Part shown: one piece after another, positions 3,035 to 29,593 of the stretch
How positions within the stretch are numbered: position 1 is the first letter of the stretch
How the letters are laid out: each line of letters opens with the position of its first letter
Assembly (NCBI RefSeq): GCF_003231495.1
Contig: NZ_PQWO01000028.1
Coordinates: 19,061-51,060 of the forward strand
Direction: 5' to 3'
From: Acaryochloris thomasi RCC1774
Lineage (GTDB): Bacteria; Cyanobacteriota; Cyanobacteriia; Thermosynechococcales; Thermosynechococcaceae
Length of the DNA: 32,000 nt
Made by a program: the position numbers and the translations under genes
The notes under the pieces: generated by a model
Told to the model about the DNA's origin: nothing
Seen by the model: the letters and a program-made list of their open reading frames with translations, nothing else
Database searches by the model: none

Positions 3035-3751
3035 ATGAGCACTGACTTAGCAACTCAATTACGTGAAGGCACTAAAAAGGCGCACACGATGGCGGAAAAC
3101 GTGGGCTTTGTAAAGTGCTTTTTAAAGGGCACGGTAGAGAAGAAGTCCTATCGACGGCTGGTGGAAGATTTATATTTTGTTTATTCAGCGCTGGAGGTCG
3201 AACTCAAGCGTCATCGAAATCACGATGTTATTTCGATGATTTACTTTCCTGAGCTGAATCGAAAACAAAGTCTCGAATGTGATCTCAATTATTACTATGG
3301 TCCCAATTGGAAGGGGGAAATCGCGCCGTCTCCTGCGGCTCAAGCCTATGTTCAGCAAATAGAAAGGGTGTCGGAACAGGCACCAGAGCTGCTGGTGGCC
3401 CATTCCTATACGCGCTACCTCGGTGATTTATCGGGGGGACAAATTCTTAAAAATATCGCGCAGCGAGCGATGCGGTTGGCCGATGGCGCCGGCACGGCTT
3501 TCTATGAATTCGATGAAATTTCGGATGAGAAAGAGTTTAAGTCGGTTTACCGGCAGGCGTTAGATAATTTGCCCATTGACCAAGCCGATGCAGAGCGCAT
3601 TGTGGAGGAGGCAAATGCGGCTTTTGGCATGAATATGGCCATGTTTAATGAGTTAGAAGGAAGTCTGATCGCGGCCATTGGTAAGATGCTCTTCAATACG
3701 TTGACCCAGCGACGGCCTCGCAAAAATACGGCGCTGGCGACGGCGGAGTAA
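3035..3751 (+). CDS. ho1: Heme oxygenase 1 (biliverdin-producing)
   Basis: 238 aa. LATQLREGTKKAHTMAENVGFVKCFLKG, YFPELNR, AHSYTRYLGDLSGGQILKNIA are classic heme-oxygenase motifs, including the proximal His in TKKAH. Confidence 0.93.
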   Translation: MSTDLATQLREGTKKAHTMAENVGFVKCFLKGTVEKKSYRRLVEDLYFVYSALEVELKRHRNHDVISMIYFPELNRKQSLECDLNYYYGPNWKGEIAPSPAAQAYVQQIERVSEQAPELLVAHSYTRYLGDLSGGQILKNIAQRAMRLADGAGTAFYEFDEISDEKEFKSVYRQALDNLPIDQADAERIVEEANAAFGMNMAMFNELEGSLIAAIGKMLFNTLTQRRPRKNTALATAE

Positions 3752-4450: not shown

Positions 4451-4822
4451 CTATCTATACAGGGACCACGCAATAAAACGCTCTACTGTGTATAGCGCTA
4501 GCTGGTTGCTCGCTCCGTTGAACACACTGTCAAACGAATGGCCCGCCCATGGTATCTCTATATACACCGATACGTTGCCAAGGCCCTTAAGACGACGGTG
4601 AAGATGACGGCCATAACGAGATTCCACTAGCTGATCCCGACTCCCATAAAGCAGCAATGTTGGAGGAAGACCTTCTGCAACATACGTCAATGGAGAGGCT
4701 CGACGATATAAATCTGGACGCTCAGAGGGAAGGCTACCTAAAAAATCCTCGAGGACCGAGCGCGTATCTATCGGATCCGGATCCGGGGGACGATACAGGC
4801 TTTTAAGGGAGGTAGAGTAAAG
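4451..4822 (-). pseudogene. 3' fragment of an alpha/beta-hydrolase (esterase-type) gene; N-terminal two thirds missing
   Basis: The frame is open for 124 codons from the stop at 4823-4825 down to the stop at 4451. It reads ...DPIDTRSVLEDFLGSLPSERPDLYRRASPLTYVAEGLPPTLLLYGSRDQLV...IEIPWAGHSFD, which holds the catalytic Asp and His regions. No nucleophile-elbow GxSxG region and no plausible start are present. Confidence 0.6.
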
Positions 4823-4886
4823 CTAGACAACATTCAATGAGATACGTATAGTAAATGGAATTATATACAGCCTAAAGGCTCAAGAC

Positions 4887-6767
4887 GTGATATCCATGGA
4901 CGCTATCGCCGCCAGAGAAACTATCATTGAACGTTACAGACAAAGGATCTCGCTCGGCAAACACGTTCGACTCTACAAGCGTGAACTCGAAGAACTTATA
5001 CATGGATTCATCAATACACTCGAAACTATACATGAACCCGAGAGAATTCAAGCTGCCTGCCAAAACGAAATTGAACTATTAGAAGAAGGCTATCCACGAC
5101 CAACGCTTGCTAGTTCTTATATTCCTCGCTACCGAAAAGCAATTGCTGAAGCGATCGCAACCCAAAAACTCCCTTCCTCAAAGCATCGATACCTCCATCA
5201 CCAACGTCTGACCGGTCTTCCTCAAGAGCGTGACGAACACTGGGCCTTAACCTTCTTCAAGTATTCGCAGGAACAGTACGAACACCTTGACCACCGACAG
5301 GCAAAAACCAATCGCAAGCGCCTCCTGAATTTACAGAAGGTGAATCCTTGGCAGTATCTCGATACTCTCAATGAGCTGCTGCTGGCGACCGGGAAATTTG
5401 CGGCTCGGCATCGCACTATCGCCATTGTCGGGTTCACGGGTCGCCGCTTTGGAGAAGTGGTCGCTCGCGGTTCGTTTTCATTAACGTCCCATCCCTACTT
5501 ACTGCGCTTTGAAGGTCAGCAAAAGAGTGAGCGCGACGGCTATGACATCATCACCCTCATTCCTGCTGAGATTATTCTCATGCACCTCGAACGCCTCCGA
5601 GAAATGCCGGAACTGAAGCCTTTGGCAGCCATGCAGGGTCAAGAGTTGAAGAAAGCGATTAACAAGTTTGACGTTCAGGTCAACCGTGAATGCGACAAGC
5701 TATTGATGAAACCTGGCGTCATGCCTCCTCTCGATGGTAAAGAGCATGTGACCATTCATAACCTGAGAAGTCTATGGGGGGCGATCGCAACCTTCCTATT
5801 CTGTCCACCGGAACAACACGAGTATGCCTTCTTGCAGCATTATCTCGGACATATTTTGGAATCATCTGCCACAGGACACTACTTTCGATACATACTAGTT
5901 GACCGTCAAGGACAGCTCTTGCAGCAAAAAGGTGTCAAGCTCCAAGACATCCCCCCTCTGCCGTTGTTGGAGATCGAGAATGCCTCCGAAGAAGTAGATG
6001 AAGCAGGCTTTGATACGGTGGATCCGTCACTAGATCTATCGCCAGAACAGCAGCCTCAAGACAGAGAAGTAACCCTAACAGCGCCACGGCAGAGGAATAA
6101 CGAAGAAATGAATACGGAAGAACTTCAGGCAACACTGCGGCAAGATTGGCTGCAGGAGATCGAGCAGGTCAAACAAGAATTGCGCTCAGATTGGTCAGAG
6201 CAATTAACGACATTTAAACAACAGATCGAGCAGCAAATGACAACATTGCGGCGGCAGCTCCAGCCAGAAGCCGTACAGGAACTCACGCAGGAAATTGACA
6301 CCCTAAAAACCGAGCTGGATCAGGCACAGCAAGAGAAGCAAGAAATCGCAGCACAGCTTGCAGACGCCCAAGCGAAACTCAACAGCTTTCGTCAACTATT
6401 GTTGGGCAACGAGGAAGTCAAAAAAGAAGTCGAAGAGCAGCCGACAGAACGCAAGACAAAGGAAAGCCCTACAACAACGACACAGCGGAGAAGGCGGGCA
6501 CCCGGAAAAGCAGCTCAGAGAGCACAAATCATTTTCGATGCCATACGAGCATGGAATGATCAGCATCCAGATGACACCTTAGCCTTTAGCCCTGGACTTC
6601 TAGAGACAATCTTCAAAGTTCACCGCAAAGCCGCGAAGGAATTCTGCCAAGAGTTTCAAAACGAAATTGAAGATCACCATGCTGAAATCGGTGTCGAAAG
6701 ACTACTGACACACAACAAAGGCAAAGACATTGACGGATTTAAACTGTTTGCCGAGGCGTTCCAATAG
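4887..6767 (+). CDS. Protelomerase / telomere-resolvase-like tyrosine recombinase with coiled-coil C-terminal extension
   Basis: 626 aa from GTG 4887 (alternative ATG at 4896). Blocks resembling TelK/TelN as I recall them: FTGRRFGEVVARGSFSL (Arg), FEGQQKSERDGYDIITLIPAEIIL (Lys), HNLRSLWGAIATFLF (His/Arg), FLQHYLGHILESSATGHYFRY (His ... Tyr nucleophile). The C-terminal ~250 aa has an acidic spacer, a Q/E-rich heptad region (LQATLRQDWLQEIEQVKQELR...QEKQEIAAQLADAQAKL), the basic stretch QRRRRAPGK and a helical tail. Confidence 0.7.
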   Translation: MISMDAIAARETIIERYRQRISLGKHVRLYKRELEELIHGFINTLETIHEPERIQAACQNEIELLEEGYPRPTLASSYIPRYRKAIAEAIATQKLPSSKHRYLHHQRLTGLPQERDEHWALTFFKYSQEQYEHLDHRQAKTNRKRLLNLQKVNPWQYLDTLNELLLATGKFAARHRTIAIVGFTGRRFGEVVARGSFSLTSHPYLLRFEGQQKSERDGYDIITLIPAEIILMHLERLREMPELKPLAAMQGQELKKAINKFDVQVNRECDKLLMKPGVMPPLDGKEHVTIHNLRSLWGAIATFLFCPPEQHEYAFLQHYLGHILESSATGHYFRYILVDRQGQLLQQKGVKLQDIPPLPLLEIENASEEVDEAGFDTVDPSLDLSPEQQPQDREVTLTAPRQRNNEEMNTEELQATLRQDWLQEIEQVKQELRSDWSEQLTTFKQQIEQQMTTLRRQLQPEAVQELTQEIDTLKTELDQAQQEKQEIAAQLADAQAKLNSFRQLLLGNEEVKKEVEEQPTERKTKESPTTTTQRRRRAPGKAAQRAQIIFDAIRAWNDQHPDDTLAFSPGLLETIFKVHRKAAKEFCQEFQNEIEDHHAEIGVERLLTHNKGKDIDGFKLFAEAFQ

Positions 6768-6862: not shown

Positions 6863-9223
6863 TTACACCGCACAGTGAGCAATGGTTACGCCTGTGCCCC
6901 CCTCAGATTGTTCAGCGAACTCATAGCGTTCGACTCGGGGATGCTGCTTCAAGTATGCCTGCACACCTGCACGCAACTTTCCGGTGCCGTGGCCGTGAAT
7001 AATCCAGAGAGAGCCGTGGGCCTGTGCGATCGCATCATCTAAAACCCGCTCAGCATCAGCGACCCGTGATCCGCGAAGGTCCAGCGTATTTTCAGACGTC
7101 CGTACTGTCAACGGTTTGGGAGCCGGAGGTGCAGGGGCCGGCTTCGGCTTTGGCTCTACCTTCTCACCCGTCATTGATTCAATCTCGGTCACACTAACCG
7201 TCATTTTCATCAGACCAAAGCGTACCGTCACCTCATCTGCATCTGGGGCTAGACCAATCACCTCCGCCTTTTGTCCAATACTGGGAATCCGCACGCGGTC
7301 GCCCATCTGTGGCTTAAAAGTCGGCACCTTTGCCTTTGCAACAGGCTTCTGAGACGGGAGGCGCTGCTGCGTTACCTGCTCCAGTTTCTGAGTCGCCTCC
7401 TGCGCAGCCTGAGCCGTCATCGGTCCCTGCTGCAGTTGCCGAATAACCTTGGCAATCTCTTTGCGAGCAATCTTAATTTCATGCTGAATCGCTCGCTCCT
7501 GCTGCTGCCTCAGTTCTCGCTCTCGCGCTTTGAGTTCAGAAGCCTTGTCAGAAACCTTTTGATGGAGTTGCTCCGTACTTTGGAGCAAGCGTGCCGCTGC
7601 CTGCGCCTTGGTTTCCTGCTGTCGCCGCTGATCTTCAAGACCAGCAATCACTTCGTTGACTTCCTGGGTACCCCCACCAATGGACTGCTGGGCCTGATCA
7701 AGAATGGACTCTCGAAATCCAAGACGTTTGGCAATGATCAGGGCGTTCGAGCGCCCTGGAATACCCCACAGCAAGCGATAGGTGGGCGAGAGGGTTTGGT
7801 CATTGAATTCAACCGAGGCATTTTCAAATCTTGGGTCTTGGTATTTAAGCGCTTTGAGTTCACCAAAGTGAGTTGTGGCAACCGTAAGCTGAGCGTGATC
7901 AGCCAGGTGCTGCAGAAGTGCGATCGCCAACGCACTTCCTTCTAATGGATCAGTCCCGGCCCCGACCTCATCCAGTAATACTAGAGAGCGATCCGTCAGA
8001 CTTTCAATGATGGATTGAATCCGCCGAATATGACCTGAGAAAGTAGATAGGCTCTGCTGCAGAGATTGCTCATCGCCAATATCGGCCAGCACCTGATCGA
8101 ACCACGGCAGCTCAACCGGTTCTTGAGCCGGGACGAACAAACCCACCTTTGCCATTAGGAACGCCAGCCCTAGCGTCTTCAAGGTGACGGTTTTGCCGCC
8201 GGTATTGGGGCCGGTAATCGCGACAACCCTAATCTGGGGCGAGACCACCACGTTGATAGGCACAACAGGATCGCCTTGCTCATGATTCTGCTGCCAAACC
8301 AAAAGAGGATGGCGAAGCTGCCGCAGCGTTAAAGGTTCTTCTGAATCAACAAATCGAGGCTGGTTAGCCCCCAGCCAATAGCCATAGCGCGCCCGCGCTG
8401 CGGCCAGGTCTAACGTAGTTACAATCATGACCAGATGTTCAAGGTCAGCCTGGACCTCTGCGACCTTTTCCGTCAGACGCCGCCGAATGGCCTCTGATTC
8501 AGCCTCTGCTCTTCGCTTAAGTTGGCGCAGTTGATTATTGAGGTTGACCGTAGACTGTGGCTCGATATAGAGCGTCACCCCACTGGTGGACGTATCGTGA
8601 ACAATACCAGGGATGGCATCTTTCTGAGGTGCCTTCACAGGCAGAACAAAGCGATCGCCCCGTTGTGTAACCAACTGTTCCTGAAGCGCCCCTGCCTTGC
8701 GCTGCAGCAAACTCTGCAGAACTTTCTGAATCTGAGCGTGGGTCTGACGCTGTTTGGCACGGATTCCGACCAACTTCTCACTAGCGCGGTCAGCAACATC
8801 TCCTCGATCATCAATACAGTGATGAATTTCCTGTTCTAGTTCCGGGTAAGTTCTCAGATCAGCCACCAGGCGATTGAGTGCAAGAAGCTCAGGCTGGCGA
8901 TCAATCAGGCGTCGCAGCTGCCGGGTGCCAGCGAGGGTGGTCGCCAACTGCAGCAATTCTTCACCACTGAGAACGCCCTGCTTTTCGGAGCGCTCCAAAG
9001 CCGCTCGGATATCGTAGATGCCATTAAAGACCAGCGGCGTCAACAGCCGATTTTCTAAGTCATAGACCTCTCGGGTCTGATTGAGAAGCGTCTGACTCTC
9101 AGACAGTTGCCCCGGAATCTCCAATGCCTGTGCTGCGGCAACCCCTAACTTTGTTGCAGCGAAAGTCGATAGGTGCTGGCACAGACGCGGCCATTCCAGC
9201 AAATCCAGAGTTTTGACAGGCAT
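6863..9223 (-). CDS. mutS2: Endonuclease MutS2 (MutS domain V ATPase plus C-terminal Smr domain)
   Basis: ORF-track frame 6863..9262, which begins with GTG. I prefer ATG at 9223 (MPVKTLDLLEWPRLCQHL, the typical MutS2 start). Walker A ITGPNTGGKTVTLKT, LVLLDEVGAGTDP, TTHFGELK. Smr domain: LDLRGSRVADAERVLDDAI...LWIIHGHGTGKLRAGV. Confidence 0.92.
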   Translation of the reverse strand: MPVKTLDLLEWPRLCQHLSTFAATKLGVAAAQALEIPGQLSESQTLLNQTREVYDLENRLLTPLVFNGIYDIRAALERSEKQGVLSGEELLQLATTLAGTRQLRRLIDRQPELLALNRLVADLRTYPELEQEIHHCIDDRGDVADRASEKLVGIRAKQRQTHAQIQKVLQSLLQRKAGALQEQLVTQRGDRFVLPVKAPQKDAIPGIVHDTSTSGVTLYIEPQSTVNLNNQLRQLKRRAEAESEAIRRRLTEKVAEVQADLEHLVMIVTTLDLAAARARYGYWLGANQPRFVDSEEPLTLRQLRHPLLVWQQNHEQGDPVVPINVVVSPQIRVVAITGPNTGGKTVTLKTLGLAFLMAKVGLFVPAQEPVELPWFDQVLADIGDEQSLQQSLSTFSGHIRRIQSIIESLTDRSLVLLDEVGAGTDPLEGSALAIALLQHLADHAQLTVATTHFGELKALKYQDPRFENASVEFNDQTLSPTYRLLWGIPGRSNALIIAKRLGFRESILDQAQQSIGGGTQEVNEVIAGLEDQRRQQETKAQAAARLLQSTEQLHQKVSDKASELKARERELRQQQERAIQHEIKIARKEIAKVIRQLQQGPMTAQAAQEATQKLEQVTQQRLPSQKPVAKAKVPTFKPQMGDRVRIPSIGQKAEVIGLAPDADEVTVRFGLMKMTVSVTEIESMTGEKVEPKPKPAPAPPAPKPLTVRTSENTLDLRGSRVADAERVLDDAIAQAHGSLWIIHGHGTGKLRAGVQAYLKQHPRVERYEFAEQSEGGTGVTIAHCAV

Positions 9224-9358
9224 TCTAGACCTAAAACAGCTAACAGAATTATCGTGACACACTCCTACGCTAGACGCTATGTGGGACAGACGCTACAAGG
9301 GTCAAAAGACCGCTAATCAGATCGACGAGGAAAATTTCTCTTCAAGATGCTTAACATT

Positions 9359-28642: not shown

Positions 28643-29002
28643 AGTTTTAACATTTGTAGGTGAGCTAACGATTCTTTCTGCTTAAGGCAAGGATGCCCCG
28701 TGCAGTTGATTCGTTAAGTCCTACTCTAGAGGGGTATTTTTAGCCTCCACTGAGAGCAGGATTCGTAATTTGGAATGTCTCTCTCAGGGCCGTCTTAGAA
28801 AAATCTGAGCCAGCGAGATGACCAGAGTCTTTCGCCACCATTAATTGATGAAGCAGGGGGTTAATAGGCTGCATGACAGATTTCGCGTGAATACTAGATA
28901 GGTTTAGAAAAATCCCGCTTCTGTTAGCATTGGCATCCAGCAGCGGGAAATAGGGTTAGAGAGAACTCGGTTTGTAGGATAGTCAAACAACCATGCGATT
29001 AA

Positions 29003-29032
29003 TCAGAGCTGAACGATATCGTTCAGCTCTGA
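29003..29032. repeat. Perfect 30-bp palindrome TCAGAGCTGAACGAT|ATCGTTCAGCTCTGA (central GATATC)
   Basis: I checked all 15 pairs by hand. It lies 81 nt downstream of the stop of the His/Lys-rich peptide gene (minus strand). Plausible roles are a terminator hairpin or a protein-binding site. Confidence 0.85.
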
Positions 29033-29112
29033 CTGCAGAGCAGCGCATCTATCTTATTTCTGCCAGCACTATTGTGGAGTTAGGAAGTATCTATCTACGT
29101 GCTGTCAGGGGA

Positions 29113-29400
29113 CTAACGGAAACGGTGAACGTTGTGGAATTTCTTGTGGCCGATGAACTTCTTCTTGCCGTGGAATTTGTCATGACCATGGTGGCCTTTC
29201 TTCACTTTCTTGAATTTCTTGTGACCGTGATGACCTTTCTTGAATTTCTTGAACTTAAGGGCCACCAGTTGCGTCTCTGACTGGCTTTCAATGGAATGGT
29301 CAAGTGTCTTCGCTTCGGCTGTGCGACCTGTCGTTAAGCCAAGGGTCATCACGACGAGTCCGACAAGAGTGGTATTGATTAGACGGTTTTTGTTGTTCAT
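29113..29400 (-). CDS. Secreted His/Lys-rich repeat peptide (95-aa precursor)
   Basis: ATG at 29400 with GGAGAA 8 nt upstream. Signal peptide MNNKNRLINTTLVGLVVMTLGLTTGRTAEA. The mature part ends KFKKFKKGHHGHKKFKKVKKGHHGHDKFHGKKKFIGHKKFHNVHRFR. The KKGHHGH unit is duplicated at the DNA level. The track ORF extends to GTG 29580, which I consider spurious. Confidence 0.6.
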   Translation of the reverse strand: MNNKNRLINTTLVGLVVMTLGLTTGRTAEAKTLDHSIESQSETQLVALKFKKFKKGHHGHKKFKKVKKGHHGHDKFHGKKKFIGHKKFHNVHRFR

Positions 29401-29555
29401 TATTTGGTTCTCCAACCTCGATGACTTCAATCTACGAGGGTTGTCTGAGAACCAGATGATCCCTTTCGATACGCGCATGACAAACTTGCTGAGGGGTTCG
29501 GTCGAGCTTGCTGAGAAAACTGAGAAAGGGAGAACCCTAAGCTGAGACAATCGCT

Positions 29556-29593
29556 CCCCACACTTCATACCCTCCCCCACACTTCATACCCTC
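29556..29593. repeat. Perfect tandem direct repeat, 2 x 19 bp (CCCCACACTTCATACCCTC)
   Basis: Read directly from the sequence. It lies about 155-195 nt upstream of the His/Lys-rich peptide start codon. Confidence 0.9.

Follow-up and report, generated by a model that had tools for sequence, protein, structure and literature searches.

A chromosomal gene of Acaryochloris thomasi RCC1774 encodes a member of the cyanobacterial protelomerase family that probably acts in trans

Cyanobacterial protelomerases have already been described, with one member biochemically characterised (bioRxiv 10.1101/2024.11.13.623437). [quoted passage not shown] The protein of A. thomasi considered here is built, as far as TelT can be compared by description, like TelT and the other cyanobacterial protelomerases, with an N-terminal domain, a PF16684 catalytic domain and a C-terminal extension. 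Unlike the gene of the PAST element, the A. thomasi gene is placed outside any transposon, away from a replicon end and among housekeeping genes. The telomere-adjacent Leptolyngbya-type proteins are 26-29% identical to it. The closest relatives on finished replicons are encoded by pGLO7428.02 (Gloeocapsa sp. PCC 7428) and Cy782202 (Gloeothece verrucosa PCC 7822). These relatives have the N-terminal, catalytic and C-terminal domains in common with the A. thomasi protein, and in both plasmids the gene is located far from the replicon ends. However, these proteins are longer (770-830 aa), with a longer middle region, and their genes are plasmid-borne, with transposases and integrases for neighbours instead of chromosomal housekeeping genes.

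By structure and by profile, Agrobacterium TelA (4dwp, 4e0g and others) matches best, and the six active-site positions and the N-terminal region with the hairpin-refolding residues can be aligned to it. Identity to TelA is nevertheless ~20%, TelA has Y363 where the A. thomasi protein has His291, and it possesses neither the coiled coil nor the C-terminal domain. TelN (N15) and TelK (phiKO2) share the catalytic core and four motif blocks, but their C-terminal DNA-binding domain, the 'stirrup', is a separate one without relation to that of the A. thomasi protein (PMC3558466). TelN itself has ~200 aa beyond the catalytic Tyr. Borrelia ResT resembles the A. thomasi protein in the catalytic-domain fold (8vs5, E = 2e-4, TM-score 0.70 on target), and resT is also encoded away from its targets; it is carried on the circular plasmid cp26, hence ResT acts in trans (PMC2229028). 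ResT is, on the other hand, much smaller, with a different N-terminal domain and without the coiled coil or the C-terminal domain. According to the original prediction, the target of a protelomerase normally adjoins its gene. This is true for phage-plasmids, as in N15, where telRL is located 165 bp upstream of telN, in contrast to the A. thomasi gene, which has no nearby target; it is not true for the cellular systems (ResT, PCC 7428, PCC 7822). The four traits that were thought to set the gene apart, i.e., its embedding among core genes, its HIP1 octamers, its C-terminal extension and the missing palindrome, do not separate it from known systems.

The window analysed here is a stretch of 32,000 nucleotides of the marine cyanobacterium A. 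thomasi RCC1774, whose published draft (PQWO00000000) consists of 72 short-read contigs without topology information (PMC6002478). The open reading frame at 4887-6767 on the plus strand exists as earlier described, with 626 aa counted from GTG 4887. The true start is probably ATG 4896, as the RefSeq protein WP_110988698.1 has 623 aa and the nearest orthologs start with MDAIAARE. The gene is already named "protelomerase family protein" by NCBI and is labelled in UniRef too; the cyanobacterial family to which it belongs was likewise known and annotated before. The sigma-70-like promoter match upstream is one site where 2.3 are expected in shuffled sequences, which taken alone is below significance. 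The features of the gene are as follows (aa numbered from GTG 4887).

4824..4852, plus strand: sigma-70-like promoter match TAGACA-17-TATAGT, ~44 bp upstream of ATG 4896; consensus match only
4887..6767, plus strand: protelomerase (telomere resolvase) gene, likely start ATG 4896, 623 aa; WP_110988698.1, locus tag C1752_09152
4887..5327, plus strand: N-terminal helical domain, aa 1-147; aligns to TelA ~134-222, the region of the hairpin-refolding residues
5151..5158, unstranded: HIP1 octamer GCGATCGC inside the gene
5328..5891, plus strand: ResT/TelK-type catalytic domain, aa 148-335; pLDDT mostly >90, dN/dS 0.04-0.05
5445-5447, 5523-5525 and 5757-5759, plus strand: codons of R187, K213 and H291, by profile alignment to TelA
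5766-5768, 5850-5852 and 5880-5882, plus strand: codons of R294, H322 and the predicted nucleophile Y332, by profile alignment to TelA
5781..5788, unstranded: HIP1 octamer GCGATCGC inside the gene
5922..6113, plus strand: acidic disordered linker, aa 346-409; pLDDT <50, 15 D+E vs 5 K+R, dN/dS 0.18-0.37
6114..6401, plus strand: Q/E-rich long helices, predicted coiled coil, aa 410-505 (helices 410-457 and 461-505); dN/dS 0.08-0.09
6402..6506, plus strand: low-complexity linker ending in basic QRRRRAPGK; family consensus RGRKPGKA, G540 invariant
6507..6764, plus strand: C-terminal helical domain, aa 541-626, conserved and cyanobacterial-family-specific; domain model pLDDT 90.4, dN/dS 0.05-0.15

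The Pfam model PF16684 (ResT/TelK catalytic domain) matches aa 148-335 with E = 8.2e-61 (205 bits vs a cutoff of 27), and the match spans the whole profile, positions 1-181 of 181. A profile built from 30 homologs finds TelA (4dwp, E = 1.5e-15) and TelK (2v6e, E = 1.4e-11) in the PDB and aligns with N15 TelN in hhalign (probability 96.8%, E = 2.5e-10). The relationship to TelA and TelN required such profiles: phmmer of the protein against the PDB returned coiled-coil noise and no protelomerase, tblastn against phages gave VP882 as the sole match, and pairwise BLAST misses TelN and TelK. The NCBIfam search gave a weak TelA N-terminal match only. The block-by-block correspondence to TelK and TelN that had been proposed initially was reproduced with TelN by hhalign for all four blocks (TGRR / SGRR, GQQK / GQAK, HNLRS / YKDSR and LGH...GHY / LGH...LHY).

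In the profile alignment, R187, K213, H291, R294, H322 and Y332 correspond to TelA R255, K286, Y363, R366, H394 and Y405, the active-site residues named for TelA (PMC3558466). All six are invariant or nearly so in the 30 homologs, and the third position is His (H291), compared to Tyr in TelA and TelN. The original prediction of a chromosomal protelomerase with the full R-K-(H/Y)-R-H-Y set is thus borne out by the PF16684 match and by the agreement at all six TelA positions. One detail has to be corrected: the Tyr proposed as nucleophile does lie in GHYFRY, but it is the first Tyr of this motif (Y332) and not the last. Searches with the predicted structure in Foldseek lead to the same family, with TelA at E = 2.9e-10, TelK at 6.3e-9 and the ResT catalytic domain at 2.1e-4; XerH, the Tn1549 integrase and Cre rank behind the protelomerases, with E of 7e-3 or weaker (about 1e-2). 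A better match to an ordinary integrase, which would have spoken against the assignment, was not obtained, and the predicted fold is nearer to protelomerases than to ordinary tyrosine recombinases. As judged from its sequence, the gene encodes a protelomerase with a complete, intact active site.

The remaining parts of the protein are also those of the family. End-to-end alignments with 98-100% coverage were obtained with more than 80 homologs, which share an architecture of N-terminal domain, catalytic domain, variable linker, coiled coil, basic arm and an 85-aa C-terminal domain. The N-terminal stretch aligns to TelA with E = 2.5e-06. The hairpin-refolding residues of TelA are Y201 and R205 (PMC3558466); the first corresponds to Y102, a position held by Y or F in the family, and the second to Q106, which has the invariant R107 in the adjoining column. 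The linker (aa 346-409) varies in length among family members and aligns poorly, and the helices of aa 410-505 match coiled-coil families weakly. The C-terminal domain is found in only 81 representative clusters among 1.84 billion proteins, always at the C-terminus. Its model showed no significant similarity to PDB folds, the best being weak HTH/winged-helix repressors with E >= 2, and in Pfam it gave only a sub-threshold DUF488-N3a match; it is a putative DNA-binding domain. The C-terminal extension of ~250 aa noticed earlier, with its linker, Q/E helices, QRRRRAPGK and helical tail, is therefore real, but it does not distinguish this gene, as the coiled coil and the C-terminal domain occur throughout the cyanobacterial family, telomere-adjacent members included.

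For several relatives in the family, the gene lies physically at the end of linear DNA. Four contigs (L052, L060, L062 and L064) start with perfect palindromes of 42-94 bp with the common core ATAGCTTTTTGGTTAACCAAAAAGCTAT, and in each of them the gene sits 0.5-0.85 kb inside; for the members near palindromic contig starts as a whole, the distance is 0.4-0.85 kb. Such perfect palindromes at contig starts are hairpin read-throughs. L035 also has a palindromic contig end, L069 is a fold-back contig of 15.8 kb, and the scaffolds L057/L058 and L059/L073 are mirrored. Among loci on contigs of at least 25 kb, the 5' end of the gene is at most 1 kb from the contig end in 8 of 33, where about one would be expected. 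The plasmid pGLO7428.02, recorded as linear, has terminal inverted repeats of 1,340 bp, each starting with a 36-bp palindrome; its protelomerase (45% identity) is encoded 13 kb from the plasmid end. Cy782202, also recorded as linear, encodes a relative (51-54% identity) 133 kb from its end, and its deposited ends showed no palindrome and no terminal inverted repeat. Physical association with hairpin telomeres thus holds for relatives in the family, the A. thomasi gene aside; where the telomere evidence is direct, the relatives share no more than 26-51% identity with the A. thomasi protein. The contig breaks upstream of the gene in L007, L016 and L017 were rejected as telomeres, being assembly breaks only, since the sister contigs L006 and L010 continue across. 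The "two chromosomal copies" of Altericista were likewise set aside, as they are one 99.97%-identical inverted duplication and not independent internal copies. In L074, the tel locus lies on an 884-kb replicon. The catalytic domain is missing in L069, P0173 and P0195, and the active site is degenerate in P0100; telomere-adjacent paralogs without a catalytic domain may be telomere-binding proteins.

In A. thomasi, the setting is a different one. All neighbours with Pfam matches are housekeeping genes, and the order tel-mutS2(-ndhD) recurs in the relatives L005, at 70% identity, and L086, at 84% identity, in agreement with the proposed embedding among core genes. The chromosomal clade to which the gene belongs has proteins of 590-680 aa. 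Both HIP1 octamers reported inside the gene are real. The window has 14 HIP1 octamers vs 0.58 expected, the density within the gene matches that of the window, and the GC content of the gene matches the host. HIP1 density, GC content and conserved synteny together indicate long residence in the chromosome, as had been suggested from the octamers. The gene is under strong purifying selection, with an overall dN/dS of 0.10; the catalytic domain has 0.04-0.05, and for the coiled coil and the C-terminal domain the values are 0.05-0.15. In a scan of species-representative genomes, those of the closest relatives (>=60% identity; L005, L006 and L007) gave a single internal copy each, and no telomere-adjacent partner gene was found in them. 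Just upstream of the A. thomasi gene, a truncated ORF of 79 aa without a Pfam match is present on the minus strand (4451-4690). Within ~1.4 kb of the gene there is no palindrome whose arms reach 11 nt, which extends the earlier observation for ~500 bp on either side. With an internal gene this is as expected, since at a working site next to it the chromosome would be cut.

It was initially proposed that the protein could be either a domesticated recombinase or the maintenance enzyme of a linear replicon encoded elsewhere, and of these two functions the second is favoured. As the gene is located in a housekeeping region without an adjacent target, its product would act in trans. We consider it probable that it is a catalytically competent protelomerase of the cyanobacterial family, acting on predicted hairpin telomeres elsewhere in the genome; we presume here that the A. 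thomasi protein is active and that a target of suitable sequence exists, and the functions given to the C-terminal modules are likewise presumed. By analogy to TelA, TelK and TelT, a dimer would bind the inverted-repeat junction formed when a hairpin end is replicated through. In each subunit, Y332, assisted by R187, K213, H291, R294 and H322, would cut one strand with a short stagger, giving a 3'-phosphotyrosyl intermediate. Each strand would then be refolded and joined to its own complement, resulting in two covalently closed hairpin telomeres. The coiled coil, the basic arm and the C-terminal domain would probably serve for dimerisation or end-bridging and for additional contacts to DNA. 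The targets would be telomeres elsewhere in A. thomasi, either of one or more linear plasmids or at the ends of a linear chromosome. Points against this reading are the single internal copy in the closest genomes scanned, the low identity of the relatives with telomere evidence, and His in place of Tyr at the third catalytic position.

The alternative that survives best is that all replicons are circular and the protelomerase has been domesticated for a role other than at telomeres, for example cruciform or palindrome processing, specialised recombination or repair, or pure DNA binding or bridging. The chromosomal position among core genes, kept in close relatives, the strong purifying selection, the apparently single copy in the closest genomes scanned and the lack of a target near the gene could all be read in this way, and the non-catalytic derivatives in the family (L069, P0173 and P0195, with P0100 degenerate) indicate that functional drift is possible. 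However, the position, selection, copy number and missing target are equally expected of a resolvase acting in trans, for which ResT on cp26 is the precedent. Moreover, the full catalytic set is kept, together with aromatic and Arg positions aligned with the hairpin-refolding residues of TelA, and relatives of the same architecture are located at demonstrable hairpin ends. We know of no protelomerase with a non-telomere function. Domestication is therefore unlikely, and the stricter form, in which A. thomasi and its close relatives all have only circular replicons and a single-copy protelomerase domesticated for such a role, is distinctly unlikely. If domestication were true, this would be the first non-telomeric function of a protelomerase.

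As a further alternative, the gene would be the relic of an integrated linear phage-plasmid of the N15 type or of a protelomerase-associated telomeric transposon (PAST), without further use to the host. Cyanobacterial protelomerase genes are often found on PAST elements and plasmids, with several paralogs in many genomes, and the truncated ORF upstream may mark an old rearrangement. Against this, TnsB, TnsC and TniQ were sought in the 32-kb window and none was found, and transposase, integrase and phage genes are also absent from it; GC content and HIP1 density are those of the host, mutS2 and ndhD still accompany the gene in relatives of 70-84% identity, and a dN/dS of ~0.1 in all structured domains speaks against decay. 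Such a remnant is very improbable. The gene was also rejected as present cargo of a PAST telomeric transposon, for which a TnsB-TnsC-TniQ operon near a replicon end would be expected and was not seen in the window, and as part of an N15-like linear phage-plasmid, there being no palindrome within ~1.4 kb and no phage genes in the window.

The only palindromes above chance in the window are 1397-1439, 3211-3239 and 29001-29034. In shuffled sequences, 0-2 palindromes reached an arm length of 11 nt, and none was as long as 1397-1439 or 29003-29032. The window contains neither the Leptolyngbya-type and Crocosphaera-type telomere sequences nor the TTGG-W4-CCAA tip motif, and no upstream element common to the window and the loci of relatives was found beyond a 12-nt match. 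That the 30-bp perfect palindrome 29003-29032 (or the 43-bp 1397-1439) is the target and the chromosome is cut there, a reading to which their more than chance length and a 30-bp perfect palindrome ~600 bp upstream of the tel-like gene in L071 would be favourable, is extremely improbable, since the contig runs through both with unrelated flanks, so that neither is broken in the DNA that was sequenced, their distances from the gene are 22 kb and 3.4 kb, respectively, and their centres (CGATATCG; GTTCAGAGC) differ from the A/T-centred telomere tips of the family (TTGGTTAACCAA, TTGGAATTCCAA and GTTAATTAAC). As a target, 29003-29032 was rejected also on account of its core, which turns up, never at a contig end, in 8 metagenome contigs that have no relation to the window, and of its position: it follows the stop codon of an ORF on the minus strand by ~80 bp, a place that suits a terminator or regulatory hairpin.

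The palindromes at the contig ends of the relatives, with their recurring TTGG-W4-CCAA tip, are candidate telomere sequences for several cyanobacterial lineages. If the A. thomasi protein is a resolvase acting in trans, as we favour, then an intact, selected and chromosomally fixed enzyme predicts linear, hairpin-ended DNA, as yet unseen, in A. thomasi. The same would be predicted for the related clade of Acaryochloridaceae and Thermosynechococcaceae, in which such DNA would have been missed by short-read drafts.

The open reading frame at 4887-6767 is real, comprises 626 aa from a GTG, and its product belongs to the protelomerase family.

Protelomerase gene: 4887-6767, plus strand, C1752_09152 / WP_110988698.1, NCBI name "protelomerase family protein"

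The ATG at 4896 is probably the translation start, since the nearest orthologs and the 623-aa RefSeq protein begin MDAIAARE; residue numbers given here nevertheless count from the GTG, on the 626-aa product. The Pfam ResT/TelK catalytic-domain model matches aa 148-335 over its full length (E = 8.2e-61). Single-sequence searches with the query reach neither the solved protelomerase structures nor the phage enzymes; a profile built from 30 homologs retrieves both TelA (E = 1.5e-15) and TelK (E = 1.4e-11) from the PDB. The same profile, aligned to N15 TelN with 96.8% probability, reproduces all four motif blocks given in the original prediction. The best PDB matches of the AlphaFold2 model (mean pLDDT 76.8, catalytic core mostly >90) are TelA, TelK and the ResT catalytic domain, with XerH, Tn1549 integrase and Cre ranking below them.

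The active-site residues of TelA are R255, K286, Y363, R366, H394 and Y405 (PMC3558466). The PDB chain numbering of TelA equals the native numbering +20, and this offset was applied when the residues were mapped from the profile alignment.

Active-site residues of TelA and their counterparts in the query (profile alignment)
TelA R255: query R187, motif TGRR
TelA K286: query K213, motif GQQK
TelA Y363: query H291, motif HNLR
TelA R366: query R294, motif HNLR
TelA H394: query H322, motif LGH
TelA Y405 (nucleophile): query Y332, first Tyr of GHYFRY

The full catalytic set that had been claimed is intact, with all six positions filled, and can be made more precise: the nucleophile is the first tyrosine of GHYFRY, and at the third position the query shares His with ordinary tyrosine recombinases, whereas TelA and TelN have Tyr. 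These six residues are invariant or nearly so across the family. The N-terminal region of the query aligns with the TelA segment carrying the hairpin-refolding residues; TelA Y201 corresponds to Y102, and TelA R205 to Q106, which adjoins the invariant R107. This correspondence is suggestive, not conclusive.

The C-terminal extension had been noted as a peculiarity of this protein. It is present, but it is a trait of the cyanobacterial family, in which dozens of homologs share one architecture end to end: N-terminal domain, catalytic domain, variable acidic linker, coiled coil, basic arm (consensus RGRKPGKA) and an 85-aa helical domain. In an exhaustive search of 1.84 billion proteins, the last 92 aa of the query were found in only 81 representative clusters, always at the extreme C-terminus. 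The model of the C-terminal domain is confident (pLDDT 90.4) and has no significant structural neighbour, the best being a weak similarity to HTH / winged-helix repressors. The cyanobacterial protelomerase TelT makes hairpins in vitro (Peters-lab preprint, bioRxiv 10.1101/2024.11.13.623437), and in view of the findings in that preprint the coiled coil would serve dimerisation or end-bridging, and the basic arm and C-terminal domain would bind DNA.

Some relatives keep this architecture around an absent or degenerate catalytic domain. L069, a 15.8-kb contig of the MAG Synechococcales VAR_35_metabat_10, carries within 7840-9330, ~400 bp from its fold-back centre, a gene for a 345-aa protein that lacks the catalytic domain and combines an N-terminal domain of protelomerase type (48% identity to the query) with a coiled coil and the C-terminal domain (33%, E = 4e-5); another contig of this MAG, L036, encodes a full-length enzyme. 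The homologs P0173 (384 aa) and P0195 (316 aa) are built alike, and the three may represent a telomere-binding protein family derived from protelomerases. The full-length homolog P0100 (644 aa, alignment row 30) has TGLR for TGRR and VNLR for HNLR, and lacks the GQxK lysine, the LGH histidine and the tyrosine at the nucleophile position; both coiled coil and C-terminal domain are retained, and the protein may be a paralog that has lost catalysis.

Exact-sequence matches assign the window to a 51-kb contig of the Acaryochloris thomasi RCC1774 draft genome. All other window ORFs with Pfam matches are housekeeping genes (phycobilisome linker, ferrochelatase, heme oxygenase, CpcT, MutS2, NdhD, a PAS-GGDEF-EAL protein, PdxA, an S1-domain protein, NrdR, GTPases and type IA topoisomerase); no transposase, phage or TnsBCQ genes occur in the 32 kb, and GC content is even across the region. 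HIP1, whose two copies within the gene had been read as a sign of long residence, occurs 14 times in the window vs 0.58 expected. The tel-mutS2-ndhD order recurs in a MAG locus, L005 (protein 70% identical), and tel-mutS2 in the locus L086 (84%). More distant relatives (40-65% identity) likewise lie among housekeeping genes, but in different neighbourhoods, one of them adjoining a phycobilisome cluster. Selection was estimated against orthologous genes 92% and 82% identical at the nucleotide level.

dN/dS of the protelomerase gene and its parts
Whole gene: about 0.10
Catalytic domain: 0.04-0.05
Coiled coil: 0.08-0.09
C-terminal domain: 0.05-0.15
Two disordered linkers: 0.18-0.53

Setting, synteny and dN/dS together indicate a gene that is functional, long resident and inherited vertically within its clade.

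The phycobilisome-adjoining homolog, P0033 (44% identity; L093:8001-17761), lies beside PBS linkers, CpeT, CpeS and CpcD, and the window has its own PBS linker and CpcT; this may be old shared synteny or chance. The 468-bp cpcT-protelomerase spacer, partly conserved in the locus L085 (87%), holds a 79-aa ORF (4451-4690, minus strand) that has no Pfam match and by eye resembles an alpha/beta-hydrolase C-terminal end (…LLLYGSRDQLV…IPWAGHSFD…), probably the relic of a gene and a trace of an old rearrangement.

With a minimum arm length of 11 nt, the window contains just three palindromes, against 0-2 in shuffled sequences.

1397-1439: near-perfect palindrome, 43 bp, 21-nt arms, 1 mismatch, TTGAGGTCACACCCAGCGTTC-A-GAGCGCTGGGTGTGACCTCAA
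3211-3239: palindrome
29001-29034: palindrome, including the perfect 30-bp palindrome 29003-29032, TCAGAGCTGAACGAT/ATCGTTCAGCTCTGA

None lies within ~1.4 kb of the gene, in agreement with the original prediction that an adjacent target is missing. All three are continuous in the contig with unrelated sequence on both sides and are therefore not resolved ends, and their centres are unlike the A/T-centred tips of family telomeres. A functional site beside an internal gene is not to be expected, because the chromosome would be cut there. The palindrome at 1397-1439, in the divergent spacer between a phycobilisome-linker gene and ferrochelatase, may be an operator or RNA hairpin. The one at 29003-29032, considered as a protelomerase target, was rejected: besides the read-through and the unlike centre, its core turns up elsewhere only within metagenome contigs that are unrelated, in no case at their ends. 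No connection of this palindrome with telomeres is evident. It lies ~80 bp past the end of a small minus-strand ORF rich in His and Lys (29113-29580) and is probably a terminator or regulatory hairpin.

Among relatives, there is direct evidence of telomeres. A profile scan of species-representative genomes gave 75 loci; for the 33 on contigs of 25 kb or longer, the 5' end of the gene lies <1 kb from a contig end in 8 (~1 expected), and the 3' end in only one. Four of those eight contigs (L052, L060, L062 and L064, from three assemblies of different species) begin exactly with perfect 42-94 bp palindromes with the core ATAGCTTTTTGGTTAACCAAAAAGCTAT, the pattern expected of an assembler reading around a hairpin. 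ATGTTTCCTTGGAATTCCAAGGAAACAT forms the start of L035, a contig of a Crocosphaera MAG, and L069 is in its entirety one perfect fold-back. Both ends of pGLO7428.02, a Gloeocapsa sp. PCC 7428 plasmid recorded as linear, carry the same 1,340-bp inverted repeat, which begins TACATTGTTATATTGGAATTCCAATATAACAATGTA; the plasmid encodes a protelomerase with 45% identity to the query, 13 kb in from one terminus. Among plasmid-borne relatives, the closest one (51-54% identity) is encoded on Cy782202 of Gloeothece PCC 7822, likewise recorded as linear, at a distance of 133 kb from the nearest end.

Palindromic ends in relatives
L052:1-90
L062:1-94
L060:1-42
L064:1-54
L035:1-28
L089:1-36, end of pGLO7428.02
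L090:1965-2000, end of pGLO7428.02
L069, centre of the fold-back

In Leptolyngbya sp. Cla-17, the core ATAGCTTTTTGGTTAACCAAAAAGCTAT is internal to a 480-kb scaffold, 'plasmid unnamed1' (loci L057/L058 and L059/L073), exactly midway between mirrored tel copies ~7.6 kb to each side, with perfect inverted-repeat arms of 486 and 1,714 nt; these structures come either from reading through a hairpin or from placing unresolved replicated junctions in a single scaffold. The evidence from relatives therefore makes the cyanobacterial family demonstrably telomere-associated, and gene-target adjacency is not a rule within it.

The palindrome tips recur across lineages as TTGG-W4-CCAA, being TTGGTTAACCAA in Leptolyngbya-type ends, TTGGAATTCCAA in Gloeocapsa PCC 7428 and a Crocosphaera MAG, and GTTAATTAAC in L069, and the terminal palindromes beside family members are candidate cyanobacterial hairpin-telomere sequences. 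In two Thermosynechococcaceae MAG contigs, a perfect internal palindrome with flanks that are not mirrored lies upstream of a tel-like gene (48% identity to the query N-terminal domain), at a distance of 2.9 kb for L070:1801-1846 (46 bp) and 0.6 kb for L071:6752-6781 (30 bp). These palindromes may be target sites that are still intact and unresolved, or simply terminators. At about 2.36-2.44 Mb of the complete Altericista sp. CCNU0014 chromosome, the two 'copies' L009 and L033 belong to an inverted duplication that spans at least 13 kb with 99.97% identity, with an 8.2-kb segment inverted between copies and frameshifts in one; the duplication may be genuine, as a large inverted repeat, or the product of an assembly fold-back.

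The best-supported reading is that the query would be an active protelomerase whose targets, resolved in trans, are hairpin telomeres at other places in the A. thomasi genome. What is shown is family membership, the intact catalytic set, selection, the chromosomal location, and telomere association in relatives that share its architecture; the activity of the protein and the linear replicon we infer. Agrobacterium telA is located on the circular chromosome. In the phage layout of N15, telRL lies 165 bp upstream of telN, unlike the A. thomasi gene with its palindrome-free ~1.4 kb; at the opposite extreme, ResT is encoded on the circular cp26 (PMC2229028). The RCC1774 draft, assembled from 160-bp read pairs with a coverage of 20x, retains only contigs that reach 1 kb and have cyanobacterial BLAST hits, and has no reported topology (PMC6002478), so the existence of a linear replicon is not decidable from it. 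A domesticated enzyme with a non-telomere role, proposed earlier as one option, is rather improbable; each point in its favour would be expected just as much if the enzyme were a resolvase acting in trans. Selection on the gene, the kept synteny and the absence of element genes from the window make a decaying remnant of a mobile element unlikely.

The gene had been named by automated annotation and its family is treated in the literature; the query is a new, uncharacterised member of a known family. It yields a testable prediction, namely linear hairpin-ended DNA in Acaryochloris thomasi and its relatives.
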